The notes under the pieces are model-generated. The model saw only the letters and a list, made by a program, of their open reading frames with translations, was not told the origin of the DNA and made no database searches. A stretch of DNA of 64,000 bases from Promethearchaeati archaeon SRVP18_Atabeyarchaeia-1 (GTDB lineage Archaea; Asgardarchaeota; Atabeyarchaeia; Atabeyarchaeales; Atabeyarchaeaceae). The number at the start of each line of letters is the position of its first letter. The first letter of the stretch is position 1. The DNA lies in NCBI GenBank assembly GCA_037308085.1, contig CP147779.1, forward strand, positions 160,001 to 224,000, given 5' to 3'. Below are positions 27,699-43,221 of this stretch, one piece after another. The translations under genes were made by a program, and so were the position numbers.

Positions 27699-27727
27699 GG
27701 CAGAGATAGAAACCAATTGGCGGGGAC

Positions 27728-29014
27728 GTGCGCATGGGCAGAGATGAGATCATAGACAGGACATTTGTGGCTGAGCCTTCAGATCTTGACCCTGACAAGT
27801 TTGTTGTCGCTACCTATTATGTAGATGCAGATTTCTCCACATTAAAAGCAGGTGAGCAGATAGCCATCGAAGAAAGCATAGGAACATGGACTGATGTGAG
27901 CACCGCTAGAGAAGACGTGAAGAGACTAGCAGGCAGAGTCTTTGAACACCCTCAAGGAAATGAGGGTGTAATCAAAATAGCCTACCCACTCGAACTCTTC
28001 GATGTCGATTCAGGCATTCCAAACCTGCTGAGCATTGTAGCTGGCAACTTATTCGGGCTTGCGCCATTAAGAAGCGTGAAACTTCTGGATATTGAGCTAC
28101 CGAGAGCATATGTGAAGAGCTTTCCTGGCCCGAGACACGGCATAGAGGGAATCAGAGGCATCATTGGAACACTCAAGGATCGGAGACCACACGTCGGAAC
28201 CATAATCAAACCAAAGGTCGGGCTGAACCCGAAGCAGACGGCGGAAGTCGCTTACCAAGCCGCCGTAGGAGGAGTAGACCTTGTAAAAGACGATGAGACC
28301 TTGACAAATCAGCCCTTCTGCCCACTAGAGGAAAGAGTGAGTAGAGTCATCGAGAAACTTGATCAAGCTACGGCAGAGACTGGGAGAAAGATACTCTACG
28401 CCACCAATGTCTCGGCTTACCATGAGAAGATGATGAAACTGGCGCAGACGGCAATGAACAATGGCGCAAATTGCCTTATGATTGATTTCCTCACTGCCGG
28501 ATTCTCAGGCCTACAAGCATTATCATCTGAGAGTTCATTCAACGTTCCGATACACGTCCATAGAACGATGCATGGCGTGTTCGACAGGAACCCCAAACAG
28601 GGCATAGCTATGATTGTATTAGCCAAGCTTGTACGATTAGCTGGCGGTGACCAACTACACACGGGGGCAGCTGCTGGCAAAATGGAGGATGCAGGTAAGG
28701 CCGTCAAGGACGTGAATGATTTCCTCAGATCCGAGTGGAATGGACTCAGGACTGTCCTGCCAGTCGCGTCTGGAGGAATACATCCAGGGATCGTTCCAGA
28801 CAACGTTCAAGCACTGGGCAAAGACATATTGATCCAAGCTGGAGGAGGAATACATGGTCATCCACAGGGCACAAAAGCTGGAGCTGGAGCGATGCGGCAA
28901 GCCGTCGAGGCAGTCATGAGTAAAATTACATTGGAAGTGTATGCAAAGTCACACAAAGAACTTGCGTTGGCTTTGGAGAAGTGGGACAGAAGATATGGAA
29001 AAGAGGCAGATTAA
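27728..29014 (+). CDS. rbcL: Form III (archaeal) RuBisCO
   Basis: EESIGTW, GNLF, KPK, KDDE, HVHR, QLHTG, GKME, SGG, AGGG: catalytic set apparently complete. Confidence 0.92.
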   Translation: MRMGRDEIIDRTFVAEPSDLDPDKFVVATYYVDADFSTLKAGEQIAIEESIGTWTDVSTAREDVKRLAGRVFEHPQGNEGVIKIAYPLELFDVDSGIPNLLSIVAGNLFGLAPLRSVKLLDIELPRAYVKSFPGPRHGIEGIRGIIGTLKDRRPHVGTIIKPKVGLNPKQTAEVAYQAAVGGVDLVKDDETLTNQPFCPLEERVSRVIEKLDQATAETGRKILYATNVSAYHEKMMKLAQTAMNNGANCLMIDFLTAGFSGLQALSSESSFNVPIHVHRTMHGVFDRNPKQGIAMIVLAKLVRLAGGDQLHTGAAAGKMEDAGKAVKDVNDFLRSEWNGLRTVLPVASGGIHPGIVPDNVQALGKDILIQAGGGIHGHPQGTKAGAGAMRQAVEAVMSKITLEVYAKSHKELALALEKWDRRYGKEAD

Positions 29015-29102: not shown

Positions 29103-29753
29103 TTGCCTAAGAAGTCGAAAAACAGTTCCGCCAAGGAAATCATCAAGTTCGGAATAGTGATAGCTATTATCATTGGCGGCGTACTGGGCGCAAACGTGGC
29201 GCTACAGGCTGCCCTAGGTACACCAATTCCAATAGTCGTGGTTACTTCGGGCAGCATGGTTCCAACAATAAACGTGGGAGATGTATGCGTGATACAAAGG
29301 GTTAGCCCTGATCAGTACGTTGTCGGGAACCATACCACCCACACGGGTGACATCATTGTATGGGATGCCACAGGCATACTGCAAACGGAAGGCAATGAAC
29401 CCGTAATACACAGAATTGTTGACCGCAGATACAACAACGGCACGGGGCACTTCGAGTTCCTGACAGAAGGAGATAACAATTTTGGCCCAGATCGTAGAAC
29501 CGACAACGGGAGCCTTGCATGGTTTCAGGACGCCAGAGTGTACGGCAAAGTCACACTCATAATACCTTGGATTGGCAACATATTCCTGTTCCTCAGAGGG
29601 GGAGGCGTATGGCTGGTGGTCTTGGTACTTGCAGTCATCATCGTACTGATGTTCGTAGAGGAGATGTCCAAGATAGAGAAAAAGGCAAAGGAGAAGCTTG
29701 AAACTAACCCTAATGGGAAAGGGTTGCATAATTCGAGTGAGTACGCAACCTAA
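29103..29753 (+). CDS. Signal peptidase I (Sec11-type)
   Basis: N-terminal TM, SGSMVPT Ser, IHRI His, GDNN, C-terminal TM. Confidence 0.92.
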   Translation: MPKKSKNSSAKEIIKFGIVIAIIIGGVLGANVALQAALGTPIPIVVVTSGSMVPTINVGDVCVIQRVSPDQYVVGNHTTHTGDIIVWDATGILQTEGNEPVIHRIVDRRYNNGTGHFEFLTEGDNNFGPDRRTDNGSLAWFQDARVYGKVTLIIPWIGNIFLFLRGGGVWLVVLVLAVIIVLMFVEEMSKIEKKAKEKLETNPNGKGLHNSSEYAT

Positions 29754-30970
29754 GATTGTGGATGCGAGACTATCGAGATGAATTCGTCTTGGGGTTTTAT
29801 TGCCCCGCTCCCGACCACGACCCTATAAAAGCACAACTTGCCAGTCCTCGCATCCTCTGCCTTTTCGAGCGAGCCTGATACCTTTATTTCATCTCCTTTG
29901 AAAGCTATCCCCCTTAGTTCCCCTATCATAGATACTACCTGTGAAGGTCTCATGTCGGCTTCCACGCGTGACTGTGGGTCAAGTGGTCTGTATCCTGACA
30001 CGCCGTAGATGGCAGGTCGGAAGAGAGACTCTCGATCTTCTGTTACTTTACATATGAATGATAAGTGGCGTTCGCTGTTGATGTAGTTCAGGTCTCCGAA
30101 GTGCTCAGTTATCTCTTCGTATGTTCTGATGGCGTTGAGTACGACTCTTTTGCCTTTCCAAGTGAAACGGTTCCTCCTCAACGTATCGAATATCGTTTCC
30201 TCGAGTAGACCGAAGCCACCATTTCTGTTAGCTAGATCATTGAGTTCCGCCAAGACTTTTCTGAAGTTTTCTGCGCCATATACCGCAACATCGATGTCGC
30301 TCTGCGGGTTATGCATCCCGAGCGAAATTGAGCCATGGACCCCGAACTTATCTAGCGGAACCCTGCAACACTCTGAGAGGAAGCTCGTCAACTTCGTTGC
30401 CATGTCCTCCAAATCATCTAGGTGCCCTTCTCGCTCCTTCTTGAAGAGCCTTGCTAGGCTCGTCGAGGGTTCGTATATCTTCTTAATGGCGGTCTTCGGA
30501 ACCGTGAGCAGCGACTTCTTAAGCTTAGGGTCTTCCACGACGTACCCTGAATGATTCTTCCTGAAGACGCCAATTATGTGATCGTAGTTGCTAGGCGAGT
30601 AGAGCATTGCCGGCCTTACGAGTTCTGTGTCCTCGAGTTTCCATTCGTAGGGTAGCCACTCTATCTCGAATTCCTTTGCCAGTTTCTTGGGAACGTACTT
30701 GAGGTACGAGATCACTCTCTCCGGTGGATGGAGATATCCGATTACATAAAAGACGAAGCCCTCCTTTGTCAGTGTGGCATCGCCATCTCGTGGAATCCAC
30801 GTTCGGATCTCGGCAGAATTCCGATTAGTCTGTGACAGTCTGCTTTCCTCCAAGATTCCGTCCCGATTGTTGTCCCGTCTACGCGCTGGGCGAGCTTCTC
30901 TCCGACTCTTCCTTTTGAACTCCTTTAGGGCCTCTTCCGTGCGCCTATGTTTCCTTGATGCTTCGCCCAA
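29750..30970 (-). CDS. Uncharacterised archaeal nucleotidyltransferase (Pol-beta fold), paralog 1
   Basis: GVHGS...SDIDVAVYG motif, RDGD...GYLHPP N-terminus; true start unclear (frame open to 31051). Confidence 0.8.
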   Translation of the reverse strand: MGEASRKHRRTEEALKEFKRKSRREARPARRRDNNRDGILEESRLSQTNRNSAEIRTWIPRDGDATLTKEGFVFYVIGYLHPPERVISYLKYVPKKLAKEFEIEWLPYEWKLEDTELVRPAMLYSPSNYDHIIGVFRKNHSGYVVEDPKLKKSLLTVPKTAIKKIYEPSTSLARLFKKEREGHLDDLEDMATKLTSFLSECCRVPLDKFGVHGSISLGMHNPQSDIDVAVYGAENFRKVLAELNDLANRNGGFGLLEETIFDTLRRNRFTWKGKRVVLNAIRTYEEITEHFGDLNYINSERHLSFICKVTEDRESLFRPAIYGVSGYRPLDPQSRVEADMRPSQVVSMIGELRGIAFKGDEIKVSGSLEKAEDARTGKLCFYRVVVGSGAIKPQDEFISIVSHPQS

Positions 30971-31044
30971 GAATGCGGGTCTAATTCTGCGCTCATCCTT
31001 AGACCGTTTAGGATCGATATCAATTGAAGAGAATATGTCGTCTA

Positions 31045-31698
31045 TTACCTCCTAGTTGATTCATCCAAGGTTTCCCCGGTGAAGCCTTGCTGGGTCCTTA
31101 CTTTTGTAAGTCTCGAGCCTGATTTTGCTGGCCTACCTTGCGCTTCTTCGGTTTTTGCCTTGATCCTATTGAGGATAATATCGAGAGCCCTTTTGGCTGC
31201 GTCGGTGGCTGTGAGTTTCTCTGAGTCTAGAACAAGGTCGGGTTTATCCCACTTGTACTTGCCGCCGGGGGTATCAAACCTCTTCGCGATTTTTGAAATC
31301 AATTCTTGGGGAATAGGCGTTCCTCTTGTTGCGTTGCGTCGTTGCGCAACTTCAACGCTTACAAGCAAAAGAATGATAATGTATTCTGCCCGGTGTTTCC
31401 GGGCAATTCCAATGAGCCTATGCCTGGCTGACTCGTAATAGTTTAGATCATCGCTGATTACGACATCGAGTTTTTCTAGGCTCTGATCGATTAGCGTCCA
31501 CGTCAGGGATTCGATAAAAGCCTCCTGCTTAGGATCGAATCGGCTTCTGAGGGCAGGCATCATCTCTCGAATCCTATCTGGATCAGCAATCATGGTGTGC
31601 AAGCCATGATTGAAATCTAGTTCCTTCGCCAGTTCCAGCGCGAGCTGAGTCTTACCAGTGCAAGGTATCCCACAGAGGATTACCAGCAATTTTGCCAA
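31045..31698 (-). CDS. pstK: O-phosphoseryl-tRNA(Sec) kinase; C-terminal domain apparently frameshifted
   Basis: GIPCTGKT, DDLNYYESAR, RRNATRG, FDTPGGKYKWDKP; located in the Sec cluster. Confidence 0.85.
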   Translation of the reverse strand: MAKLLVILCGIPCTGKTQLALELAKELDFNHGLHTMIADPDRIREMMPALRSRFDPKQEAFIESLTWTLIDQSLEKLDVVISDDLNYYESARHRLIGIARKHRAEYIIILLLVSVEVAQRRNATRGTPIPQELISKIAKRFDTPGGKYKWDKPDLVLDSEKLTATDAAKRALDIILNRIKAKTEEAQGRPAKSGSRLTKVRTQQGFTGETLDESTRR

Positions 31699-31878
31699 CC
31701 GCCTGACCTCCAAGATCGCCCCTGCAGACAAACGAAGCTAGGCGTCTGAAGCGATATATTATCTTCCCTTGAAGACAGTGAACGAATCTGAAGAAGACGT
31801 AAGGAGGGAGAGAGGAGGGGGTAACAGTCGGAATTGGGGTCTAGTTTCTCTCGGCTAGCCCCTCGTTGGTCTGAAAAA

Positions 31879-32841
31879 TCATACCTCTACTTTCAGGTTG
31901 AGTTTTTGAACCATTTCCTTGTACCTGTTCCGCACAGTTACCTCAGTTATGTGTGCTGCTCCAGCTACTTCCTGTTGAGTTCTTCTTTCTCCTTCTATGA
32001 GACCTGCTATGTAGAGAGCCGCTGCTGCCATGCCAGTAGGGTCCTTGCCCGCGGTCAGCCCCATCGCTTGAGCCTGGTCTATTATCTCGATTGCTCGTCG
32101 CTGAGCATTCACGGACATGCGAAGGTCTTCACCAAATCTGGAGATGAAGTCCTGTGGTTTAGGTCTCGGAATAGCTATACCTGATGTGTGCAAAATCAGT
32201 CTTATGCTTCTGCCCAGTTCCTTGCGTCCAGCATGCGTATGAGTCACTATTTCTTCAAGTGCCCTTGGCACGTGGTGGAGTCTGCATGCTAGGTAGACCG
32301 CCGCTGCAGTTACGCCATCAATTGTTCTTCCCCTCACCAGTCGCCTTTCAAGTGCCTTTCTGTAGATGATCGCTGCGGTTTCCTTGATGTCTCTCGGTAT
32401 ACCGAGCTGGCTCGTCAATCTATCGAGTTCGCTCATGGCTGTCGCCAAGTTCCGTTGCACGGAGTTGTGAACCATCGATCTGATCTGCCATTTCCGGAGT
32501 CTGTATATCTGCGCTCGTCTACTCGGTACCAGCTTGTTTCCGTAGACATCGATGTCTCTTCTGTCTATAACTGTACTGAGACCCTTGTCATGCATGGCAA
32601 AGGTTGTTGGCGCGCCTACGCGACTCCGACCTTCCTTCTCTTCAGAGGAAAAAGCTCTCCACTCAGGACCTTGGTCGATGTATCTTTCGGATATAACGAT
32701 CCCACAATTTCCGCAAATGATCTCTCCCCTTGTAGGATCTCTGTAGATCACTGTGCTTCCGCATTCAGGGCACGGTTCAGATGGGGTCTGTTCCTTCTCC
32801 TCATTTGGCTTTGGCTTGCTCCCGATCACTTCGTCTGCCAT
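31879..32841 (-). CDS. tfb: Transcription initiation factor IIB
   Basis: CPECG...CGNCG zinc ribbon, IDQGPEWRAF, two cyclin repeats, TEVTVRNRYKE. Confidence 0.96.
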   Translation of the reverse strand: MADEVIGSKPKPNEEKEQTPSEPCPECGSTVIYRDPTRGEIICGNCGIVISERYIDQGPEWRAFSSEEKEGRSRVGAPTTFAMHDKGLSTVIDRRDIDVYGNKLVPSRRAQIYRLRKWQIRSMVHNSVQRNLATAMSELDRLTSQLGIPRDIKETAAIIYRKALERRLVRGRTIDGVTAAAVYLACRLHHVPRALEEIVTHTHAGRKELGRSIRLILHTSGIAIPRPKPQDFISRFGEDLRMSVNAQRRAIEIIDQAQAMGLTAGKDPTGMAAAALYIAGLIEGERRTQQEVAGAAHITEVTVRNRYKEMVQKLNLKVEV

Positions 32842-33131
32842 CTCTTTTTCTACACCTCCTGTATCTTTCATAAGGCATTTCCTCACAAAGAAGGGTGAGC
32901 GATACCTGTCACTAGTATTCGATGCTGTCCGCTCCTGGCGGATTTTCACCCCAAAAACCCAGTTATTAACGGCCTTCATATCGTCAATTTAAGTAACCAT
33001 TACCGCGGGCAGATAAATATATAAGTGTTACGCTTCATGACTGCTTAAAACTCTTCCGACTCTCGCAGGGAAACAGCTTCTGCAAGACGAAATTATGCTA
33101 TAAGAGACGTGTTCTAACGTTAATTCGTTGT

Positions 33132-33695
33132 CTAGCCCGAACCACGTTGTGACTTGAGTATCTCTGCCAACAGCCACATTAAGGCCGCCTCAATATTCTG
33201 ACCAAGTTTCGCCGAGGTCTCAAAGTACTTCAGTCCAAGCCTTGAGGCGCGGGCTTCTGCTGTGGATCGATCGACGAGTCGCCTGTCGGTCAAGTCAATC
33301 TTGTTACCGATGAGAACTCCAGGGATGCCACTTGTCGCACTGGCGCACTCTCCCACCCAGTCATCCACCCTCGCCAACGTGTGAGGCATAGTGACGTCGA
33401 ACATGAAAACAGCGCCTGCACTACCTTTGTAGTACATAGGTCTGATTATTTTGAATTGGGGCTGCCCGGCCAGATCCCACATTATGAGCGTGACTTGGGT
33501 TCCCCTTACATCAATTCTCTTGGTTGTTATTTCGACTCCAATCGTCGGCAAATACTCGTCACGCAACTCCTTATGGGTGAAATTCCTTACGAGCGTCGTT
33601 TTCCCGACGGCGGGCTCACCCAAAACCACTATCTTGAAATGCGGTCCCTTTGAAATCGGGAACTCAACCTCATATTGCTCGTTCTTTTTGGGCAA
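33132..33695 (-). CDS. Rab/Ras-like small GTPase
   Basis: GEPAVGKT, PTIGV, WDLAGQ, YYKGS, NKID, ETSAK. Confidence 0.92.
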   Translation of the reverse strand: MPKKNEQYEVEFPISKGPHFKIVVLGEPAVGKTTLVRNFTHKELRDEYLPTIGVEITTKRIDVRGTQVTLIMWDLAGQPQFKIIRPMYYKGSAGAVFMFDVTMPHTLARVDDWVGECASATSGIPGVLIGNKIDLTDRRLVDRSTAEARASRLGLKYFETSAKLGQNIEAALMWLLAEILKSQRGSG

Positions 33696-33767
33696 ATCTT
33701 CACTTTCCCCCTACACTGACGTTCAGACGCTGATCGGTGGATCAGTCCAGGCATGCTGGTTCCAACT

Positions 33768-34508
33768 TCAGAATGACTCAGGCCCTAGATCTATTTTCTC
33801 GTCGCCTTCTTCTTCGGCTTCTGGTTTCTTGGTCTCTGCGGATTCCTCTTTTACTTGATCAGCTGGCTCAGCAACCTCTGGAGTCTCTGCGACCTCGGGC
33901 TCAGCAACCTCTGCAGTCTCCGCGACCTCGGGCTCAGCAGGAACTGGCTTCAGCTTCATTATCCCCAGATCCATGAGAGTCTTCATGACGTTGTTGACTG
34001 CTCTATAGACATCTTCCTCTTTCTTTGCGCCTGTGCAAACAAGTTTGCCTGAACCGAAAAGAAGGATAACAACCTTTGGATCCTTCATCCTGTAGATCAG
34101 CCCTGGGAACTGTTCCGGCTCGTACATGACGTTTTCTAGGCTGTACGCGGCAAGCTCAAGGTTCAACTCCGCTCCCAAGGAAGCCGACGCAACTATGTTC
34201 TGGACGGTTATGACGGGTTCACCGGTAATTTGAATGCTAGCCTCACGCAGATGTTCGACTATTCTGTGGACTGCCCTCGAAGCTTCCGCCTCACTCTTGG
34301 CCCCGGTGCAGACCATTTTGCCGGAGTTGAAAATTAGGGTAGCAGTTTTCGGCTTCTTTAGGCGGTAGACGAGTCCCGGAAATTGTTCTGGATCATACTC
34401 GACATTGAGAAGCGAGCGGGCGACCTTGTCAAGATCAATCCTCTGATTGACCGTCACGGAGGCCACAACATTTTCTATCCTTATTTTTGGTTTCGGGAGT
34501 GTTGACAA
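33768..34508 (-). CDS. tbp: TATA-box binding protein with acidic C-terminal tail
   Basis: Two NxVAS...YxPEQFPGL...LxFxSGKxVCTGAK repeats. Confidence 0.97.
   Translation of the reverse strand: MSTLPKPKIRIENVVASVTVNQRIDLDKVARSLLNVEYDPEQFPGLVYRLKKPKTATLIFNSGKMVCTGAKSEAEASRAVHRIVEHLREASIQITGEPVITVQNIVASASLGAELNLELAAYSLENVMYEPEQFPGLIYRMKDPKVVILLFGSGKLVCTGAKKEEDVYRAVNNVMKTLMDLGIMKLKPVPAEPEVAETAEVAEPEVAETPEVAEPADQVKEESAETKKPEAEEEGDEKIDLGPESF
33865..33939. repeat. 33-bp tandem repeat (about 2.3 copies) in the TBP tail
   Basis: ggctcagcaacctctg(g/c)agtctc(t/c)gcgacctcg x2 plus ggctcagca. Confidence 0.9.
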
Positions 34509-34716
34509 CGAATAACATCCTCCTTTTGGGGAAACACAGGTTCCTGAGTTAAGAGCTAAAATCATCATTGGTTAGCAGGGCTATCCAATCAACCTTCTTT
34601 TTTCCTTATAAAGCTTGTATACTATATAAGCTGCTCCTTTTAAAACAAACGATTCGCCTCGGATGTGCGCGATTAATAGCGCAGATGCAGCCGATCCCGA
34701 AAACGGTCATAAGAAC

Positions 34717-34944
34717 CTAGAATGGTCTTTCCAGCCTCATCAGCTCATCTTTCCGCGTTTTTCTCAGATGCTTTTTCAGGATCTTGTAGTGCTTTTCGCA
34801 TATGTACACGCGGTTGCTCGTCCCTTTCACCTGTAGGCCAGCTTGGCTTAGCGGCTTCCCGATACTATCTTTAGAAAGAGATCTAACTGCTGTTTCAGTG
34901 CAACCCGCAACGTTGCACGGAACGCCCTTCTTGATCTTGCCCAT
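34717..34944 (-). CDS. Small putative zinc-binding protein
   Basis: CNVAGC ... YICEKHY, basic. Confidence 0.75.
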   Translation of the reverse strand: MGKIKKGVPCNVAGCTETAVRSLSKDSIGKPLSQAGLQVKGTSNRVYICEKHYKILKKHLRKTRKDELMRLERPF

Positions 34945-35073
34945 TATGAAACACCAGACTGTCACACGTATCGAGATTTGGGGATGTGGAGGAAAAGATG
35001 GTCTGACTTATGCTGTTCTGGCTCTTTAAATTATCTTAGAACTATGGCTCCGTGCTGCTGAGATTGGCATGCG

Positions 35074-36069
35074 CTAGGGTTTTCCTGAGAGTCTATCTTT
35101 TCGGAAGTCGAAGACCTCTGCGGAGACTTTGCCGTCCGTGATAAGAAGCCGCCCAGAGTCATTCACTTTGCCAACCGCTCTTGCTTCAACTCCATGCCTG
35201 TGAAATACCGAGAGGCAACTATCCTTATTCTCAGCTCTCACCGTCAGCACGACGCCGAACCCGGGATATGCTTTCAGCCATCTGTCTGAATCGATCCCTT
35301 GCGGCATAGGTATTTCCCCTAGGTTGATCACGCCTCCTGCTTTGCTTGAATGCAGGAGCATGCCAAGGGTACCAACAACACCTGGATTGCTGATGTCCTT
35401 CGCAGACGTTGAAACTCCACTACTCGCGATCTCGCGGATGGCGCTGAGGCAATTTGCGACCTCCGTCTTAGACTTGTGACTGGTTGTGTCCCAAGCATAT
35501 TTGAACATGTTATGAAAATGACCGTCAAGGTCAATGGCTACAACAATAAGATCGCCTGGAGACGCAGCATCGCTTCTAAGCAGTGAATTCTTCTGTACAA
35601 TGCCCAGGATGGCGACGCTCAGGGCATCGAATGGCGCGTCGGGATTGAGGTGCCCACCTACTATTGGAACATTGAATTTCATGCAACCGCTTACTATACC
35701 TTCCACGATCTTATCTCGAACGGCAGGCGAAGCGCTAGCTATCGTGTCAACTATAGCGATTGGCTCTCCACCTTTAGCCGACACATCGTTGACGGCGGCC
35801 AGAATTGAGCAATAGCCTGCAAACTTGGGATCGGCTTTGACGAGATCGTGCCACATTTCCTCTGCTTTGAAGAGAATTAGCCTTCCTTCGTCTCCGATAT
35901 CAATCACCGCACAGTCTTCGCCAAATGACTCGATTATTCTGGCACCTGGAGGGGTTATAGAGAGTGCGGTCTCCCTCATTTTTCTGGTAATTTCAATAAT
36001 AGGCAGCTTCCTGGTTGCGCCAGCGAAGGCTCTAAGCGAAGCAGCAGTCGATTTCAGATCAACGCTCAC
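35074..36069 (-). CDS. AIR synthase/PurM-fold protein (methanogenesis marker 2/sll0787-like)
   Basis: SFGEDCAVI, NDVSAKGG, GGHLNPD, KDISNPG; lacks the SelD N-terminal C/U-x-x-K motif. Confidence 0.8.
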   Translation of the reverse strand: MSVDLKSTAASLRAFAGATRKLPIIEITRKMRETALSITPPGARIIESFGEDCAVIDIGDEGRLILFKAEEMWHDLVKADPKFAGYCSILAAVNDVSAKGGEPIAIVDTIASASPAVRDKIVEGIVSGCMKFNVPIVGGHLNPDAPFDALSVAILGIVQKNSLLRSDAASPGDLIVVAIDLDGHFHNMFKYAWDTTSHKSKTEVANCLSAIREIASSGVSTSAKDISNPGVVGTLGMLLHSSKAGGVINLGEIPMPQGIDSDRWLKAYPGFGVVLTVRAENKDSCLSVFHRHGVEARAVGKVNDSGRLLITDGKVSAEVFDFRKDRLSGKP

Positions 36070-36285
36070 TATGATGGTTAGCCCCCAGGGGTCATTCAGC
36101 AGGTGACCGCGGAATTAAGTCCGTAATTCAAGCGCTTTCTTGAGCAAGTCCGATCATCTACTACAAAAAGTGAAATGGGTTTAAATAACTCGCTGCTAAG
36201 TCGCAAAAGCGATGAGAATATAGCTACGTGGAACACTTTAAGAAGTTTGTCGGTCTACTATCGAAAGCATTGCGATGGCCTCAGA

Positions 36286-36463
36286 GGCGCCCGATAGCGG
36301 GGGTGGAGGAATGCTGGTTTAACCAGGAATCAGCGCGCTACCCAATCCCACGCACCGGACTTCAAATCCGGTACACCAGAAAAACCTGTTTTGCGGGTTC
36401 TGATTGGTGTGGAGTTCGATGCTCCTCTAAGTGTAGGAGTGAAAATCTCCTCGGGCGCCGCCA
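36286..36463 (+). tRNA. selC: tRNA-Sec (UCA) with three introns (36307-36345, 36384-36403, 36421-36445)
   Basis: 9-bp acceptor GGCGCCCGA/TCGGGCGCC plus GCCA; 6-bp anticodon stem with CTTCAAA loop (UCA at 36362-36364); 4-bp T stem; each insert bounded by a BHB/BHL motif; spliced product 94 nt. Confidence 0.93.
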
Positions 36464-36467
36464 GATT

Positions 36468-37166
36468 TCAGCCTTGCACAACCGGTTCCGGAGGCGCAGG
36501 AGAAGCTTCGTCTATTGTTCTAGACAACCTTCGTTTCCAATCCAAGACCTTCATGCTTACTGACCGTGACTGGTCGGGATCCAATGGCGTTTCCTGTGAG
36601 TGGTCATACAAGCTCGCCATTACGTCGCCGGTCTCGATGTGTATCGGGTCGAATCCTTCTAGTGTCTTGATTAGGGTCTCCCTCACGATTCCGATGAACG
36701 GGTATATGTCGCCAACGGGGGCCTTCACCAGCAACTTACCCAAAGCTGCATCTAGCTTCATTTCCACTTCTATCGTCTTGATGACTTTCGTTCTATTCTT
36801 CTCATCGAATTTCCCGATTCGCCCCACAAGCTCCTTGTACCTTTTCTCATAGTTCGTGAGAGCATCTGAAGATTCTTCGGGGCTGTCTGAGCATACAGTT
36901 ATCTCCAGTTTTCCATCTGGTGCCAGAAGGAGTTTCACCGCCAGCTGGTGTCCAGAGGAAGACTTTGTGGACAACACTGCCTCTGCTGAGAAGGAAGATG
37001 ACTCGCCACCCATTGTCCCGATATTCTTGTAGCATCTTGCCTTTATCGTAGCGACAGAATGATAAACTAATGCAAAGGAAGATTGAGCATCGAGACCGTT
37101 GACTGGAAGACTCGCTTGCCTGCAATCAAGACCCTCAGCTATCTTGCTCCAGTCGGATGATTCCAT
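36468..37166 (-). CDS. Hypothetical protein following selB-spcS
   Basis: 232-aa ORF, no recognised motif. Confidence 0.75.
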   Translation of the reverse strand: MESSDWSKIAEGLDCRQASLPVNGLDAQSSFALVYHSVATIKARCYKNIGTMGGESSSFSAEAVLSTKSSSGHQLAVKLLLAPDGKLEITVCSDSPEESSDALTNYEKRYKELVGRIGKFDEKNRTKVIKTIEVEMKLDAALGKLLVKAPVGDIYPFIGIVRETLIKTLEGFDPIHIETGDVMASLYDHSQETPLDPDQSRSVSMKVLDWKRRLSRTIDEASPAPPEPVVQG

Positions 37167-37212
37167 CGCAATCGCCTACTCAACATGATTTCTCAGAGGA
37201 CCACTATATGAC

Positions 37213-38586
37213 TCATCGTTGCGGACGTGTATGATCCGGCTCTCGTTTCCCTGTCCTTTTTGCTATAGTTTGCTTCATCCCTTCCTTTAATTTTTCTACC
37301 GCATTGAATATGTCTGTCTCTGTCGACCCTATCGCAGCGTTCACTACGACATAGGAGTATGGATAATTGTCACAACAAGACCCTCGACTGCCTCGCGGAA
37401 TAACCCTTGGTCCACTGACTCTCAGGGAATACAGTATTCCTCCGAGAAGGGATGGATCGGCATTGGAGACTGTCATGGCGCACGCTATTGGGCTTTTGAC
37501 TTTCAGCATTCTCTCTCCACACGATTCCGCTGCTTCACCAAGCAGTGTTTCAAGAAGCTTTCTGTTTGACTCTTGGGCATCGCGAAGCCTCTCGTATCCG
37601 TCAATCCCGACAGATAGAATAGATGCTAGGAACTGATAGATCGGAGATGCGGATGCTCGACCTACATAGCTTGACGCTACTTTCTCGGCGAAGTCTTCAT
37701 CGGGAGAAGCGATTATTGCCCCGCCCACTGGTGTCAAGAAGTTCTTGTCGGTGCTTTGTACTACAGCATCTACTCTCCCAGCGTCTATTGCCAATCGGAT
37801 CTCTCGCATGGTTTCTCTGCTCTGCGCCCCATAAGCATTGTTTATGATGTGGGGAATATTCTGCTCCGAAGCAATCCGGGCAATATCGGCTATTGAATCA
37901 GTCTCCCTTGGAGGGAAAAAAGTCGTTGTCGAGAGTATGGCGGAGCAACGCTTGTCAATAGCTTCGGCTATATCGGTGACCGGCACGCGCACCGCGTCGT
38001 CATAGGTCTTCCCTTCAATAACTCTTGCCTTGAGATTGACCAAGTTCATGGCCTTCAAAGGGGAATCATGATCCACCCTTGCGAAAACTACTGTGTCACG
38101 TTCGCCACGAATTGAATCTCTAGTTGCTGCTAGGGCAAGTGCGATCGACATTCCTGTGGCTACGGGAGAAACGATCGCAGACTTCAGGTTGAACGCACCG
38201 AGTTTCTGCATGGCATCTAGCGCACATTTGTTGGCCAATCCATAAAGGACCGATGCCCCGGGGGCCTTTGGCTGGGGTGAAAGGAGTGACCCGCTTCTCC
38301 CAACTCCATGACAGAACCCCCATGCCAACTCAGAGACCAGGGGAGAAGCTACTCTTGCCTCACGCTCCCCAATTCTTATGCCATCGATATCCTTGTCAGT
38401 ATCCATCATTGAGAGAAGTCTCATCAAGAGACCGATTACGTGATCCGGCCATCCCGATTGCGGGATCCGCCTCTGCTTGAATAGGTTCCTTATCAGATTC
38501 AATTGAGAACTAAAGGCTACTTCGGAACGCCTCAACATCGCTTTGGGTAAGAAACCCTCAAGGTATTCCTCAAGCTTGTCACTCAA
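37213..38586 (-). CDS. spcS: O-phosphoseryl-tRNA(Sec) selenium transferase (SepSecS)
   Basis: GEREARV, HGVGRSG...QPKAPG, INNAYG, QSTDKNF (PLP Lys), GRAS. Confidence 0.95.
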   Translation of the reverse strand: MSDKLEEYLEGFLPKAMLRRSEVAFSSQLNLIRNLFKQRRIPQSGWPDHVIGLLMRLLSMMDTDKDIDGIRIGEREARVASPLVSELAWGFCHGVGRSGSLLSPQPKAPGASVLYGLANKCALDAMQKLGAFNLKSAIVSPVATGMSIALALAATRDSIRGERDTVVFARVDHDSPLKAMNLVNLKARVIEGKTYDDAVRVPVTDIAEAIDKRCSAILSTTTFFPPRETDSIADIARIASEQNIPHIINNAYGAQSRETMREIRLAIDAGRVDAVVQSTDKNFLTPVGGAIIASPDEDFAEKVASSYVGRASASPIYQFLASILSVGIDGYERLRDAQESNRKLLETLLGEAAESCGERMLKVKSPIACAMTVSNADPSLLGGILYSLRVSGPRVIPRGSRGSCCDNYPYSYVVVNAAIGSTETDIFNAVEKLKEGMKQTIAKRTGKREPDHTRPQR

Positions 38587-38674
38587 AGTGGTTACCCCGG
38601 GCTAGTCCGAAGATGACAGAGGCTGTCATCTGGATCGATTCTGGCTTGACGTTTGATCCAGATCACAGACGCTT

Positions 38675-40060
38675 TCAAGGTATATTAAAATCCCGATACC
38701 TCCTAAGGAAGACCTTCTCGCCCAGTTGTGGAAGTCTTTCGAACTCGGCGACAACAAGACCTTTGCCCCCAAAAGCAGAAGATACAGTGCCATTGTCGCC
38801 GTTCTCTTTCGAGATGGTTTTACCAATGATCTTTTCCGCGCCTATCTTGCTCTTCGCCAACCCGCTGACGATCACGTTGGCCCTCGGGGTTATTCTGGTG
38901 ACCGCCCCCGACTTCTTCTCAAGCACTTTCAGTGGCGGGGGGTTGGTCAGAGTCTCTAGCACTGTGCCACCAGCGGCTATTCTAAGATTCGTGGGAGGAA
39001 GACTGAGTAATAGTAGAAGCATTTTGTCCCCTTTCTCCACTACGACGGACTTGGACAACCTGATATATGATGTGAAATCTCTCTCTTTAGGTGCTGATGC
39101 AACGACGAATTCCTGTTGTTCATTTGTCAGATAGGGAAAAACTTGGGATTGAATCGACGACATGCCTACCGCGGCATGCATTGACAGTCCTGGAGCAATC
39201 TCATGTTTGAAGAACTTGCTCACACACCCACCAAAAAGGAGGTGAAAGGTCGTCCTCAGTGATTTCGGTGAGGAGGCGTAGCATCCCCTGTAGATAGAAC
39301 GATGATCGACGCCTTGTAAGGCAATGCCTACGCGGTCTCCGGCCTCAGCCTTTTCCCTCGGCTCACTGAATGTCTGAATGGATTTGACACGACAGATTGC
39401 ACCTATGGGTGATATCTCCACATCGTCTCCGACTTTCACTTTTCCTCGCATAATCGTTCCTGTCACGACTGTGCCGGCGCCCTTTATTGGAAAAGAATGG
39501 TCTATCACCATCTTGAACTTTCCATCGACATCCCGTTCTGGAGGAGAAAGCAGTGAAAGAAGAGTTTTCTTTAGCTCGGGCAATCCCAATCCGGTAATGG
39601 ATGAGACCGCCACTACTGGTGCATCCGCGTAGCTTGAATCCGAGATGACCTTTCGAACTGATTCCTTGCTTTCGCTCAACTTGCTTTCTTCAACCAAATC
39701 GGCGTACGTGAGTGCAACTAATAGCTTACGTATCTTTAGGCTCTCAAGTAGCACTAGGTGCTCTCCAGTTTGGATTTGCGGTCCTTGCTTTGCAGAGACA
39801 ACCAAGATAGCTAGGTCAATTATGTTGGCACCGCTAACCGCCGTTCTTACCAGATCTGCATGTCCAGGAACATCAACAAGGGTCACTAGGTAGTCCCCTA
39901 GTGTGAACGCAGTGAAGCCGATATCAATAGTCATCTGCCTTCTTTTGGCTTCTGGGTGCCCGTCTAGCCCCGCAGTTGAAACCTTCTCGCTCAACGCGCG
40001 AGCGAGCTCAGTCTTCCCGTGATCCACATGACCGAACAGACCGACATGAACTGGGATCAT
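38675..40060 (-). CDS. selB: Selenocysteine-specific elongation factor (archaeal type)
   Basis: GHVDHGKT, TIDIGF, DVPGHADL, QTGEH, GDRVG, short C-terminal domain IV. Confidence 0.93.
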   Translation of the reverse strand: MIPVHVGLFGHVDHGKTELARALSEKVSTAGLDGHPEAKRRQMTIDIGFTAFTLGDYLVTLVDVPGHADLVRTAVSGANIIDLAILVVSAKQGPQIQTGEHLVLLESLKIRKLLVALTYADLVEESKLSESKESVRKVISDSSYADAPVVAVSSITGLGLPELKKTLLSLLSPPERDVDGKFKMVIDHSFPIKGAGTVVTGTIMRGKVKVGDDVEISPIGAICRVKSIQTFSEPREKAEAGDRVGIALQGVDHRSIYRGCYASSPKSLRTTFHLLFGGCVSKFFKHEIAPGLSMHAAVGMSSIQSQVFPYLTNEQQEFVVASAPKERDFTSYIRLSKSVVVEKGDKMLLLLLSLPPTNLRIAAGGTVLETLTNPPPLKVLEKKSGAVTRITPRANVIVSGLAKSKIGAEKIIGKTISKENGDNGTVSSAFGGKGLVVAEFERLPQLGEKVFLRRYRDFNIP

Positions 40061-40105
40061 TCTTCTCCAATTCGCTCCCTTAGTCAGTAGCTGCTCTCCG
40101 CGGTC

Positions 40106-41184
40106 TCAAGAGACATCAAGGGAAGAAGCAGGTCTTAACACTTGCTCATAGTAGTTCGACGCCCTCGTAAGGGTGATCTGGTAGTATTCCCCCTTGGAAT
40201 CCGTGACCTTCTCCAAGTTGCCTTCAACGACAACTTCTTCCCCAGCTTCTGCCTGCCCCCTGAATTCCTCAACAAAGGAAGTAATCTGCCTGATCGGGCC
40301 AACATTCATTCCCTTCAGAACCTTCTTCAATTCTATCTTATAGAGCGAAGGCATGAAGAAGGAGTCAGTGTCATCGAGTACTTCGGCGACCGCTCTGATC
40401 CGCCCTAGAGTCTCGATTCTGGAGCTTGGGTCATATCTTTCTTCGATCTCGTTCCAGTCTCGCACTGGCTCAAACTCGATCTTGAAGTCACGACCAAGCC
40501 GCTCTGGTTTGTAGATCGCGTATACCATTTTTCTGCGGCAGTATTGACAGAAGTCCCTTAAGGGTATGTCCTTGAAGTACCAGTGCCTGCCGTTGGCCCA
40601 CTTCCTCCACTCATCGAACTCGTTGCTCATTTTCAGTCCAGGCTGACTGTAAATTTCTCGCAGAGTCTCTCTCAAAACCTGCGTGCTTCGCCGACCGTAA
40701 ACCACGAAATCGAGATCGCTAAACTCTGGATGGTGAAAGCCATGAAGTACCGAACCGAACACCCCAAAATCACTCGGGCGCAACTTCGAGTGACTGGTTA
40801 CAGTATCCAAGACCTCTCGCAGAGCAACTAGCAGCTTGTCTTGATCTAATCGATTGCCCTCCAGCAAAGAATGGAGTTTAGCTTCAGGTCGCCTTAGTTC
40901 CGCAATCTGCGCTAAGGTTAGTCCGACCAGTTTTCTCTGAAGCGGCGCGAAGAATAGTTGGTACTGTGGGTATCTCTCTGCCACAAACCTTAGTCCACCG
41001 TCGACGTAGAACTTGTAATACCGGCCAGATGGGGACTGACGAACCGCGCGAGGGTCATCTGTAGAGTAGATCTCCTCCGGCGCATATTCCACGTCACACA
41101 CGCAACTCTTAGGAGGATGAGAGTATCCGTACACTCTCAGAATAAGTCCCTCTCTTGTAACTGGGGAGTCTCTATCCCTTGCTT
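40106..41184 (-). CDS. Uncharacterised archaeal nucleotidyltransferase, paralog 2 (5' end irregular)
   Basis: GVFGS...SDLDFVVYG; homologous N-terminus ARDRDSPVTREGLILRVYGYSHPP lies upstream of the first in-frame start (41134). Confidence 0.8.
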
Positions 41185-41313
41185 CAAAGTTCTTTTGTCC
41201 AGTTCGACACCTTGTATCATTACCTGCTATCGTATCTCGCCTTCCAAGTCAAATGACCTAGCCTTCTTAAGAACTTTGGGCTAAAAAGAGAACCGTATGA
41301 AATGCGGTTCGCT

Positions 41314-42042
41314 TCAGGAAATAAATTTCTTCAGGAGTTCAGTGGCGAACTCCATCATTGCCAGTCGGTCCTCAAGGCTATTCTTCTCGTCGACAAAGCC
41401 TTGGTCAGATAGGTCACCAACAGCTTGCTTGGCTGAGAGTATATCCAACTGCTTCTTCACAGAAGCTCGCTCGATACTCATCAGATTCATCCAGTTCTTG
41501 ACATTTGCGTTGTCAGTGGATACCATGTTCTCGAGTTCCCGCTTCTTCAACTGGTACTCTCGGCTCAGCGACTTGTAAGCTTCGTCGCCAATCTGCTTTG
41601 TTGCATGGAGCTTCTCCAGTTTCTCAGTTTTGTCTTTGAGATCCGCGTACTCCTTTCTGTGAGCTTCAAAAGGAAATGGCTTTATCTTCTCTTCAAGTTC
41701 AGCCTTCTTATCCTTGGATGCCCTGGTTTCCTCCCTTATCTTGGCTATGCGATCCTTATAGTCACCAGGAGGAATGTCAGCGTTCTTAAGGAGAGAGTCC
41801 ATCTCGTTGACTTCTTCTTTGAACGCCCTTAACCTATTCTCAATCGCGTTAAGCTGGACTCTGATCTCAACCTGTTCAAGCACATCGGCTGGTATCTCCA
41901 GTTCAACGGAAGGGCCTTCCCGACCAGAGCTTGAAGCAACACTTCCCTTGATCAGCCGGCCACAGTACCTGCAGAAATTCTCAGAACCCTTGATGGGAGT
42001 GCCGCAGTAAGGGCATGAAATCCTATTTTCCAACGACACCAC
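41314..42042 (-). CDS. Zinc ribbon plus coiled-coil protein with SHOCT/CdvA-like repeats
   Basis: CPYCG...CRYCG; three LxxLxxxGx(I/L)sxxxY/F-like repeats. Confidence 0.7.
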   Translation of the reverse strand: MVSLENRISCPYCGTPIKGSENFCRYCGRLIKGSVASSSGREGPSVELEIPADVLEQVEIRVQLNAIENRLRAFKEEVNEMDSLLKNADIPPGDYKDRIAKIREETRASKDKKAELEEKIKPFPFEAHRKEYADLKDKTEKLEKLHATKQIGDEAYKSLSREYQLKKRELENMVSTDNANVKNWMNLMSIERASVKKQLDILSAKQAVGDLSDQGFVDEKNSLEDRLAMMEFATELLKKFIS

Positions 42043-42094
42043 TCCTCAAGATTGCTGCAGAACCTCGCGCCAAACCCTGCAGAAGCGATTGATT

Positions 42095-42418
42095 CTACGC
42101 GGTACTCTTAACCTTCGCAAGAGCTTTTTCAAAGGAGCCTTTATCTTTCACTATAGGCAAGTCGAAATAGGAGCCCAGGCCCTCTACTACCTCTTTAATC
42201 AGGTACATTATCGCATCCTTGGAGGTAAGCTCCTTTTTCTCGATTGTGCCATCTGGAGTTATAAATGATGCTTCCATCCACTTATCTCCGCCGGAGCTAG
42301 TCGGGAACATGGTATAGACGTAGTCCTCGGTGAAGGCTATTATACTAGGCGGAGTCGAGTAAGCTTTCTGAAGGATATTCAACATCTCGGCGGAATTCTT
42401 GGATTTGTCAGGAGACAC
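42095..42418 (-). CDS. Hypothetical protein
   Basis: 107-aa ORF with GGGGTG upstream. Confidence 0.65.
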   Translation of the reverse strand: MSPDKSKNSAEMLNILQKAYSTPPSIIAFTEDYVYTMFPTSSGGDKWMEASFITPDGTIEKKELTSKDAIMYLIKEVVEGLGSYFDLPIVKDKGSFEKALAKVKSTA

Positions 42419-42591
42419 CTATCAACACCCCCATGGATCCTCAAGTGCCATACCTCTAATAACAGGCTCGGTATGCAAGCATCCCTTGGCATTAATATTG
42501 AATAATGTAGATTTCCGCTCATAAGCATTTAGCAGAATCAGTCATTCGTGAGCAGAATCAATGCGATTGTCTCATTTTTCCACAAAAGAGT

Positions 42592-43221
42592 TCACATCTT
42601 CATCCATTCAAAGATCAAGTAGTTAACCTGACCCGACAGCGAGATCGTCGCGATAATGAACTTCTTTCTGACCGTCGTCGCAAGTCTTCCTGCCCTTACG
42701 GTTTCTATTGGGTTGATCGTTGAGCCCTTTGGCAAAGCATGCACTATGAAAGGCGCGTGGTCAATGCCCGGGCCACGCTGATAGACGCCGTAGTCGGCCC
42801 CAAACTTCAATCCAGGTCTAACAACATATCCTCTGTTCCTTAGATCCTTGTAGACGAGGTACTTGTCATCGAATCCATCATAGACTTTCTGCGCAAACTG
42901 TTGCAGTTCTTGGGCAGACATCTGATTCTTAGTCTTCGCATCAATCAGATTGATTCTCTTTTTCTCCAGTAAATAGAGAGCTTCCAACAAGGAGAGTTCG
43001 ACGGGGCATGTGAAGTCAAATGTCTTTGGCTTTCGAACCGATATAGGCTGACCATAGAAGCCTTCTTTATAGAGAGTTGACCCATCTTGTGGATCCCAAA
43101 CAATGACGTGCGTTTCGAAGAGCTCGGCTGTGATAGTCTTCTTGACCTCCGACTTCGAATTCGGCTCACCGATTTGTTTTTGCGCTTTGGCTTGTTCAGA
43201 GCTGTCACTGGGTTGTATCAT
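42592..43221 (-). CDS. endA: tRNA-intron (splicing) endonuclease, catalytic subunit
   Basis: LSLLEALYL, VYKDLRNRGY, GLKFGADYGVY, IDHAP, VRKK (Tyr-His-Lys triad). Confidence 0.93.
   Translation of the reverse strand: MIQPSDSSEQAKAQKQIGEPNSKSEVKKTITAELFETHVIVWDPQDGSTLYKEGFYGQPISVRKPKTFDFTCPVELSLLEALYLLEKKRINLIDAKTKNQMSAQELQQFAQKVYDGFDDKYLVYKDLRNRGYVVRPGLKFGADYGVYQRGPGIDHAPFIVHALPKGSTINPIETVRAGRLATTVRKKFIIATISLSGQVNYLIFEWMKM

Follow-up and report, generated by a model that had tools for sequence, protein, structure and literature searches.

We analyzed a window of 64,000 nucleotides (nt), i.e., the whole stretch G000:C1:160001-224000, which is part of a single 2,808,651-bp contig of the source genome (G000, Promethearchaeati archaeon SRVP18_Atabeyarchaeia-1), and describe here the locus at positions 29750-43221 of this window, in which genes for the synthesis and decoding of selenocysteine (Sec) lie among other genes that probably accompany them by descent. 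The locus contains fifteen open reading frames (ORFs) on the minus strand and one RNA gene on the plus strand. Read as transcribed, the locus starts with EndA, followed by orf107, a zinc-ribbon gene, NTase-B, SelB, SepSecS, Sel_Asgard and, on the opposite strand, tRNA-Sec, after which come a PurM-like gene, orf82, TBP, a Ras-like GTPase, TFB, PSTK and NTase-A (NTase, nucleotidyltransferase). A sequence-only reading of the same DNA had named pstK, tRNA-Sec, spcS, selB, endA, two nucleotidyltransferases, a PurM-fold protein and an unknown protein, and each of these genes is present where it had been placed; TFB, the Ras-like GTPase, TBP, orf82, the zinc-ribbon coiled-coil gene and orf107 were left out of that list. 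For the protein taken to be unknown, NCBIfam has a curated family, NF045535 (“Sel_Asgard, putative selenocysteine system protein”), and the protein passes its cut-off. All features of the locus are collected in Table 1.

Table 1. Features of the Sec locus, with positions in the window, strand and the evidence for each assignment.
Feature	Position	Strand	Evidence
NTase-A, Pol-beta-type nucleotidyltransferase	29750..30970	-	PF01909 26.3 bits (cut-off 21)
PSTK C-terminal (tRNA-binding) domain	30908..31051	-	-1 frame relative to kinase domain, in frame with NTase-A
PSTK kinase domain ORF, 228 aa	31045..31731	-	PF08433 KTI12 116 bits; TIGR03574 148.5 bits
TFB, housekeeping gene	31879..32979	-	PF00382 and PF08271
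Ras-family small GTPase	33132..33695	-	PF00071 153 bits
TBP	33768..34568	-	PF00352 220.7 bits
orf82, small basic C2CH zinc-finger-like protein	34717..34965	-	tblastn, 36-63% identity across families
PurM-fold protein, methanogenesis-marker-2 / sll0787 type (COG “selenophosphate synthetase-related”)	35074..36069	-	TIGR03267 335 bits
tRNA-Sec gene, 178 nt with encoded CCA	36286..36463	+	RF01852 21.3 bits unspliced; script; homology
Sel_Asgard, 232 aa	36468..37166	-	NF045535 137.7 bits (cut-off 132)
SepSecS, O-phosphoseryl-tRNA(Sec) selenium transferase	37213..38586	-	TIGR03531 467.2 bits (cut-off 224.85); PF05889 381.9 bits
SelB / EFsec	38675..40060	-	TIGR00475 290.1 bits (cut-off 242.25); PF21440 aSelB_III
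NTase-B, Pol-beta core and C-terminal OB fold	40106..41134	-	PF01909 27.6 bits (cut-off 21)
Zinc-ribbon coiled-coil protein, member of conserved EndA block	41314..42042	-	PF13248
orf107, conserved, always between EndA and zinc-ribbon gene	42095..42418	-	tblastn, 31-79% identity across families
EndA tRNA-splicing endonuclease	42592..43221	-	PF01974 102.5 bits; PF02778 48.7 bits

Core selenocysteine genes of the locus

Judged from their sequences, PSTK, tRNA-Sec, SepSecS and SelB constitute the archaeal/eukaryal Sec route, as had been proposed, with family models confirming SepSecS, SelB (including domain III of the archaeal type) and the kinase domain of PSTK. The absence of a canonical SelD, which had been noted as well, holds for the window but not for the genome, since a selD gene carrying one in-frame TGA lies about 740 kb away (G000:C1:940244-941125; TIGR00476 249.8 bits, cut-off 125). 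From what is established for these families, tRNA-Sec would be charged with serine, PSTK would phosphorylate the serine on tRNA-Sec, SepSecS would make Sec-tRNA-Sec from the phosphoseryl form with selenophosphate provided by the distant selD, which would itself be a selenoprotein gene, and SelB would bring Sec-tRNA-Sec to UGA codons. EndA would serve all tRNAs, tRNA-Sec included; its need here would arise from the bulge-helix-bulge (BHB) introns that are present in tRNA-Sec as in most other tRNAs of the genome. The core Sec gene set has already been published for Atabeyarchaeia genomes: passages of Valentin-Alvarado et al. 2024 (PMC11291895) report pstK, SecS, EFsec, SPS, tRNA-Sec and selenoproteins in Atabeyarchaeia and Freyarchaeia, i.e., the same Sec gene content as in the genome under study, while the neighbouring genes, the split PSTK described below and the gene order are not discussed in those main-text passages. 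The Sec system of Lokiarchaeota (Mariotti et al. 2016, PMC4989117) has the same five machinery genes and an SPS that is a selenoprotein; in that assembly the Sec genes are on separate contigs, except for EFsec and tRNA-Sec, whereas here they are clustered within 9 kb.

The tRNA-Sec gene is interrupted in three places. ARAGORN found no tRNA in the 64-kb window, and none in a partly spliced tRNA-Sec from which two inserts had been removed; Rfam at its gathering threshold likewise found no tRNA in the window. In E-value mode, the RF01852 match to the unspliced gene covers the anticodon and T arms at a score below the gathering score of 47, and a script located a 9-bp acceptor stem followed by G and CCA. 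BHB-type inserts interrupt the D loop (36307-36345), the variable arm (36383-36404) and the T loop (36421-36445), and the anticodon loop has none. Each insert has a 4-bp helix with a 3-nt bulge on either side, cleavage being placed after the second base of the bulge; homology to intron-less tRNA-Sec genes (88 nt plus CCA) of another Asgard family (f6, see below) was used to set the D-loop and T-loop exon boundaries. Spliced in silico, the RNA is 92 nt long and adopts a 9/4 cloverleaf (-50.9 kcal/mol, z -5.0) with a 7-position D stem, a UGGU D loop, a 6-bp anticodon stem, a CUUCAAA loop with a UCA anticodon, a 6-bp variable stem, G73 and the encoded CCA. We regard the gene as genuine, with its splicing predicted from sequence and fold. 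The 9/4 fold, the 7-bp D stem, the 4-nt D loop and the T-loop intron are shared with the tRNA-Sec of Lokiarchaeota, in which a T-loop intron has been described for Lokiarchaeum (PMC4989117); one insert is present there and three are present here. Among further relatives, the tRNA-Sec of G012, a genome of the same family (f1), contains inserts at the same three sites with a different inner sequence, and that of the Lokiarchaeial genome L024 contains one insert in the 5′ strand of the D stem and one in the T loop. According to passages of PMC11291895, introns occur in 92-95% of the tRNA genes of Atabeyarchaeia/Freyarchaeia genomes, often several per gene. The lack of tRNAs found by ARAGORN or Rfam in 64 kb fits such a near-universal multi-intron state in this lineage, and further intron-split tRNAs in the window may therefore escape detection.

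PSTK is encoded in one frame, with its own stop codon, in G012, G037, G006 and G023, the last being a genome of the same genus with an intact PSTK of 279 aa. In the window, no full-length PSTK, i.e., kinase plus C-terminal tRNA-binding domain, is found in a single frame, although both parts are present. The kinase ORF, which is 54% identical to residues 8-197 of the G023 protein, ends at a TAA inside a AGGAGGTAA motif (31045-31053) and covers positions 1-190 of the 249 of TIGR03574, whereas the G023 PSTK covers positions 1-243. The -1 frame opens at 31051 and is free of stops into NTase-A, and over its first 48 residues it can be aligned to positions 226-273 of the G023 PSTK (33% identity, E 1e-6). 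The conserved core of NTase-A begins near 30800, and the N-terminal extension of the ORF listed for it is the predicted PSTK C-terminal domain, an assignment made by pairwise alignment, as the isolated 95-aa piece matches nothing in Pfam or NCBIfam. Because contigs of 4 DNA runs (3 samples, 2 studies) span the junction without an indel there, the split arrangement characterizes this population and is not an isolated assembly error; this genome may derive from two of these runs, and one of the junction-spanning contigs, from the third sample, is gap-free throughout. As the PSTK genes of G023 and G012 are intact and have their own stop codons, the in-frame arrangement is specific to this species. 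It is possible that a truncated kinase works with a separate or NTase-fused C-terminal domain, that a -1 frameshift joins the two parts, or that the gene is decaying. Several single-base indels elsewhere in the locus were seen in one run (X3) and may be errors or strain variants.

Accessory genes and gene order across Asgard genomes

We searched the same 200 other Asgard genomes, grouped into families (f1, f2, etc.), with each query, and refer to those in which SepSecS was not found as Sec-negative; many of the genomes are incomplete, and “not found” in what follows differs from “absent”. SepSecS is present in f1 (2/2), f6 (37/43), f7 (4/5), f9 (39/41), f15 (5/5), f18 (6/6) and f23 (3/3), and was not found in the other 20 families. 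Orthologues of NTase-A (>210 bits) are present in 27 of the 200 genomes, nearly always directly upstream of NTase-B, and fall in f1, f7 (5/5), f8, f14 (3/4), f15 (5/5), f18 (6/6), f20 (3/3) and f26; none was found in f6 (0/43), f9 (0/41), f12 or f23. NTase-B orthologues (>180 bits) occur in the genomes bearing NTase-A and, in addition, in f10 and four f6 genomes. The PurM-like protein (E < 1e-30) was found in f1, f6 (42/43), f7, f8, f9 (39/41), f12 (19/19), f14 (3/4), f15, f17, f18 and f23 (1/3), and Sel_Asgard in f1, f2 (3/4), f6 (40/43), f7 (3/5, weak and two with stops), f9 (41/41), f12 (19/19), f14 (3/4, weak), f18 (5/6), f20 (2/3), f23 (3/3) and f26.

Comparison of these distributions demonstrated that all of the accessory genes occur where SepSecS was not found, and that some Sec-positive families are without accessory genes. 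For example, the NTase pair is held by the SepSecS-negative families f14, f20, f8 and f26, the PurM-like gene by f12, f14, f8 and f17, and Sel_Asgard by f12, f2, f20, f14 and f26, with scores over the family cut-off in f12, f2 and f20. SelB was also not found in the one genome checked in each of these last three families (G011, G001 and G043, respectively). Sel_Asgard was not found in the Sec-positive family f15 (0/5), in two genomes of which SelB scores over its cut-off, and no divergent Sel_Asgard-like ORF lies beside SepSecS in the f15 genome G040. Sel_Asgard thus fails the co-occurrence with the Sec trait that its family name implies.

Gene order was compared by tblastn of the window proteins on loci fetched from relatives. 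The order in G012 (f1) is that of the window. In Freyarchaeia (f18) it is PSTK, NTase-A, NTase-B, an IlvC-like gene, SelB, SepSecS, Sel_Asgard, the PurM-like gene and orf82, and in f6 it is PhoU_div, EndA, orf107, the zinc-ribbon gene, the PurM-like gene, orf82 and three unrelated ORFs, followed by SelB, SepSecS, Sel_Asgard, tRNA-Sec, PSTK and TFB. The same pieces are scattered over 40 kb in f7, with PSTK, NTase-A and NTase-B contiguous. In f15, SepSecS, SelB and the NTase pair are far apart or on separate contigs, and SepSecS sits among GcvH, FrhB-like and HdrA-like genes; in G040 (L012:10637-13818, +), the genes beside it are FrhB-like and HdrA-like ones, likely those of a selenoprotein complex, and not other Sec machinery. 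Unrelated genes are thus interspersed in several families, i.e., the IlvC-like gene in f18, the three ORFs in f6, and ThiD/ThiN, which flanks PSTK in f7 and f18.

Four Sec-negative genomes keep much of the same arrangement. In G001 (f2), PhoU_div, EndA, orf107 and the zinc-ribbon gene are followed by orf82 adjoining Sel_Asgard, and in G011 (f12) the order is Sel_Asgard, orf82, zinc-ribbon gene, orf107, EndA and PhoU_div. In G043 and G060 (both f20) we observe PhoU_div, EndA, orf107, the zinc-ribbon gene, a 4Fe-4S gene, NTase-B and NTase-A, with orf82 and Sel_Asgard beside the EndA-orf107-zinc-ribbon block in G043 and ThiD/ThiN after NTase-A in G060. PSTK, SelB and SepSecS are missing from the otherwise kept gene order of all four, the simplest reading of which is an ancestral block from which the canonical Sec genes alone would have dropped out. 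Since the accessory genes are present in SepSecS-negative families with their order kept, we favor, at a probability of roughly 0.7, the view that they are neighbours by descent in an ancient synteny block that also holds the Sec cluster, and are not dedicated Sec factors forming a new layer of the pathway. Under this view, PhoU_div, EndA, orf107, the zinc-ribbon gene, NTase-B/NTase-A, the Mmp2-like PurM gene (see below), orf82, TBP and TFB would belong to an ancient Asgard housekeeping block, in which canonical archaeal/eukaryal Sec machinery is embedded. Annotators should not make these neighbours Sec genes by position alone.

Several observations weigh against this interpretation. The linkage exceeds chance expectation, the presence of an accessory gene in a Sec-negative genome is compatible with a Sec role in Sec-positive ones, and the families share ancestry, so that few independent events are being counted. 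Sel_Asgard adjoins SepSecS in five families (f1, f6, f9, f18 and f23), at a distance of about 100-250 bp and with tRNA-Sec directly after, which lies right beside Sel_Asgard in the f1, f6 and f9 loci examined. In f1, f18 and about 28 f6 genomes, no more than about 4 kb separate the PurM-like gene from SepSecS. The genes for PSTK, NTase-A and NTase-B form an uninterrupted, co-oriented run in f7 and f18, PSTK abuts NTase-A in f1, and in the genome under study the tRNA-binding domain of PSTK is in frame with NTase-A. The suggestion that the accessory genes form an undescribed Sec layer, to be doubted if they also occurred in Sec-negative genomes and were unlinked in relatives, therefore stands in part: the linkage is real beyond this genome, and the genes remain linked in relatives, but they lack specificity, since SepSecS-negative families keep them. 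What survives of it is the position of Sel_Asgard beside SepSecS and tRNA-Sec in most Sec-positive families and the contiguity of PSTK and NTase-A in three families.

Sel_Asgard, orf82, the nucleotidyltransferases and the PurM-fold protein

Sel_Asgard is not an undescribed protein. It has a curated NCBIfam family, and a hypothetical protein that is confined to Asgard archaea, is frequently near secS, efSec and pstk and fits the description of this family was noted by Huang et al. 2024 (PMC11227280); the window protein passes the family cut-off and has the same Asgard-only distribution and the same position beside secS, efSec or pstk. To these descriptions we add its retention in SepSecS-negative families, the Sec-positive family in which it was not found, a model of its fold and a homology to a larger protein. 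The family is small, in that 1.84 billion proteins yielded 61 representative clusters, consisting almost entirely of stand-alone proteins of 210-240 aa, and is Asgard-restricted in that it was not matched in any of 14 control genomes. The predicted structure (predicted local distance difference test [pLDDT] 93.3, predicted template modelling score [pTM] 0.89) contains an N-terminal alpha/beta domain and a C-terminal four-helix bundle. The N-terminal domain matches the appendage domains of gamma-COP and beta-adaptin at Z 9-10, and the bundle matches CheA P1 at Z 12.5 and the C-terminal domain of Vps28, a subunit of ESCRT-I, at Z 11.5, which is within the background of helical bundles. On the yeast Vps28 domain the bundle superposes with a root-mean-square deviation (rmsd) of 2.2 A over 93 residues, and the template modelling (TM) score to the Xenopus Vps28 domain is 0.79 by target; the N-terminal domain of Sel_Asgard is unrelated to Vps28, and 0/30 Sel_Asgard sequences match Pfam VPS28 (PF03997). 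VIA-align and Atlas searches with Sel_Asgard gave generic four-helix-bundle and appendage-platform-like matches only, and there was no L7Ae or other RNA-binding fold among the structure-search matches of the model.

Relatives of Sel_Asgard occur in fused form only within proteins of about 790 aa that have winged-helix, PCI, UFL1 and VPS28-like regions, and none is fused to a Sec protein. For example, a Lokiarchaeial protein of 788 aa (L055:1929-4295, -; G146, f9) has DDRGK, E3_UFM1_ligase, PCI and weak EAP30 matches, and its residues 582-783 align by hhalign to residues 14-215 of Sel_Asgard (Prob 97.6, E 3.8e-12). The end of this protein equivalent to the bundle is a borderline match to Pfam VPS28 (24.3 bits, cut-off 24.5). 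This homology may point Sel_Asgard towards a protein-protein adaptor module, which we offer as a lead and not as a result. ORFs of about 790 aa that resemble the 788-aa protein are present in most f9 genomes.

The orf82 family comprises proteins of 72-107 aa with an invariant C-x4-C-x33-C-x2-H pattern (C17, C22, C56 and H59 in alignment A3) and a Lys/Arg-rich tail; homologues in other loci are at L017:7727-7951, L018:9164-9394 and L021:3075-3293. In every family examined orf82 travels with the PurM-like gene or with Sel_Asgard, following the former in f1, f18, f6 and f7 and lying beside the latter in the Sec-negative f2, f12 and f20. THAP-type C2CH spacing is C-x2-4-C-x35-53-C-x2-H, to which the orf82 pattern is close, and one homologue has a weak Pfam match (E 0.039). 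The invariant pattern and the basic tail suggest that orf82 encodes a small nucleic-acid-binding zinc-finger protein. The orf82 and orf107 proteins of the window have no Pfam match.

NTase-A and NTase-B are paralogs, as had been recognized from the sequence, with 23% identity over 335 residues (E 4e-17). In about 17 genomes they are adjacent on the same strand with NTase-A upstream; f1 is the one family in which the Sec genes lie between them, at a separation of 9-10 kb. The predicted structure of NTase-B (pLDDT 91.3) has a core that matches Trf4, TUT1, Pol beta and MenT at Z about 7, and a C-terminal oligonucleotide/oligosaccharide-binding (OB) fold that matches the OB domains of SSB, RPA and the editosome at Z 7-8. 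Foldseek gave no match in the PDB at E <= 1e-3 for the NTase-B model or for the Sel_Asgard model, and HI0073 (E 0.4) was the sole match when the NTase-B alignment was used as a profile against PDB sequences. The model fits a nucleic-acid-directed transferase without a Sec-specific feature. Relatives of NTase-B with 43-51% identity are found in Bathyarchaeia and Thermoprotei, as these are named by the sequence sources. NTase-A and NTase-B would thus be a generic archaeal tandem pair, probably acting on a nucleic acid, with the Sec genes lying between its halves by happenstance. A second, paralogous tandem pair is located outside the window at G000:C1:918427-920442 (68 and 105 bits to NTase-B), and pairs of this second type are the widespread ones in f9, f12 and f6.

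The PurM-like protein matches TIGR03267 (methanogenesis marker 2) over its full length (335.1 bits, positions 1-322 of 323), below the equivalog cut-off of 365, and this is its best-scoring family; it also matches TIGR04049 (261 bits), is related to sll0787-type AIR-synthase-like proteins and fails the selD model TIGR00476 (46.5 bits, cut-off 125). Its identity to the Mmp2-named proteins of Methanobrevibacter and Methanothrix, two genera not known to use Sec, is 40-45%, and NCBI records give the name Mmp2 to its Atabey- and Freyarchaeum orthologues. By these scores the protein, although its host is a non-methanogen, is best assigned as a methanogenesis-marker-2 relative that narrowly misses the equivalog cut-off, and not as SelD.

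Of the accessory genes, only Sel_Asgard has a linkage pattern like that of a Sec gene, and even Sel_Asgard is kept where Sec genes were not found and is missing from one Sec-positive family. Asgard archaea have eukaryote-like Sec insertion sequence (SECIS) elements, yet no SBP2 has been found in them (PMC11227280), Lokiarchaeota included (Mariotti et al. 2016, PMC4989117), which makes a Sec-linked, Asgard-only protein the obvious candidate for a reader of these elements. Sel_Asgard, possibly together with orf82, could genuinely act in Sec synthesis or decoding as an Asgard-specific factor, with a second function that keeps it after loss of Sec; for example, it could be an adaptor that replaces the missing SBP2 at SECIS elements, or one that couples SepSecS, tRNA-Sec and SelB. 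Its immediate proximity to SepSecS and tRNA-Sec, its restriction to Asgard genomes, the name given by NCBI curators and the flagging of such a protein by Huang et al. 2024 (PMC11227280) all argue for such a factor, but it scores over the cut-off in f12 (19/19), f2 and f20, where SepSecS was not found, is itself not found in f15 and is weak or stop-interrupted in f7, and its confident model contains no RNA-binding fold, while its fused relatives are the 790-aa proteins and not Sec proteins. We consider this role doubtful, the candidacy being tempered by retention where Sec genes were not found and by the Sec-using lineage in which the protein was not found; the other neighbours are generic archaeal families. 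It would be distinctly unlikely, in our estimate, that the NTase pair acts on tRNAs including tRNA-Sec (e.g., in repair or tagging of the 3′ end) in a manner coupled to PSTK, with NTase-A having gained the tRNA-Sec-binding domain of PSTK in this species. The contiguity of PSTK with NTase-A in f1, f7 and f18, the OB fold and the Trf4-, TUT1- and MenT-like core of NTase-B, and the in-frame PSTK domain seen in contigs from three samples are consistent with such a coupling. The pair is, however, common in f14, f20, f8 and f26, where SepSecS was not found, and has relatives named from Bathyarchaeia and Thermoprotei, and most of the Sec-positive Asgard genomes searched belong to f6 and f9, from which NTase-A is absent. 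Moreover, the f15 pair has no Sec gene nearby, the Sec-negative f20 has ThiD/ThiN, NTase-A and NTase-B without PSTK, the arrangement in frame with PSTK is species-specific, and an open spacer of 100 nt in a given frame is not rare.

That the PurM-fold protein might be a second, non-canonical activator of selenium or sulfur feeding SepSecS is hardly credible: it shares an ATP-using fold superfamily with SelD, lies within 4 kb of SepSecS in f1, f18 and f6 and is divergent from tRNA-Sec here, but the genome has a bona fide selD with an in-frame TGA, the selD model is failed by a wide margin, and the protein is present in f12, f14, f8 and f17, where SepSecS was not found, as well as in methanogen genera not known to use Sec, and is unlinked in f9. 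We also consider unlikely a bolder combination, in which Sel_Asgard (perhaps with orf82) would be a SECIS- or SelB-associated factor of Asgard archaea and, separately, the frameshifted PSTK would lend its tRNA-Sec-binding domain to NTase-A, giving a tRNA-Sec-directed nucleotidyltransferase; at least one of the bystanders would then act in Sec-tRNA metabolism. These readings partly overlap. Descent within an ancient synteny block remains the reading that we prefer, and three leads follow from the locus, i.e., the partners of Sel_Asgard, the split PSTK and the contiguity of PSTK with the NTase genes.

Transcription-factor genes and flanking genes

The TFB of the window is one of 3-4 copies in the genome and is 95% identical to the TFB of G012, and the TBP here is the better-scoring of two copies in the genome. 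In f1 and f6, which are distant families, a TFB gene lies immediately upstream of PSTK (31045-32979, -; L010:5847-7516 and L023:12480-13925). A dedicated TBP/TFB pair for tRNA-Sec was considered and rejected, as both are well-conserved general copies. NTase-B ends in TGA and is in the same frame as SelB, which begins 15 codons downstream (38675-41134), and the same is true of G012 but not of G023; a reading of the two genes as a single frame was rejected as probable chance, since the arrangement is not kept in G023. Just upstream of the locus, at 26742-29014 (+), an IF-2B-family protein (ribose-1,5-bisphosphate-isomerase-like) is followed by the large subunit of RuBisCO, an arrangement that is kept in G012 and that is the usual archaeal AMP-salvage pair.

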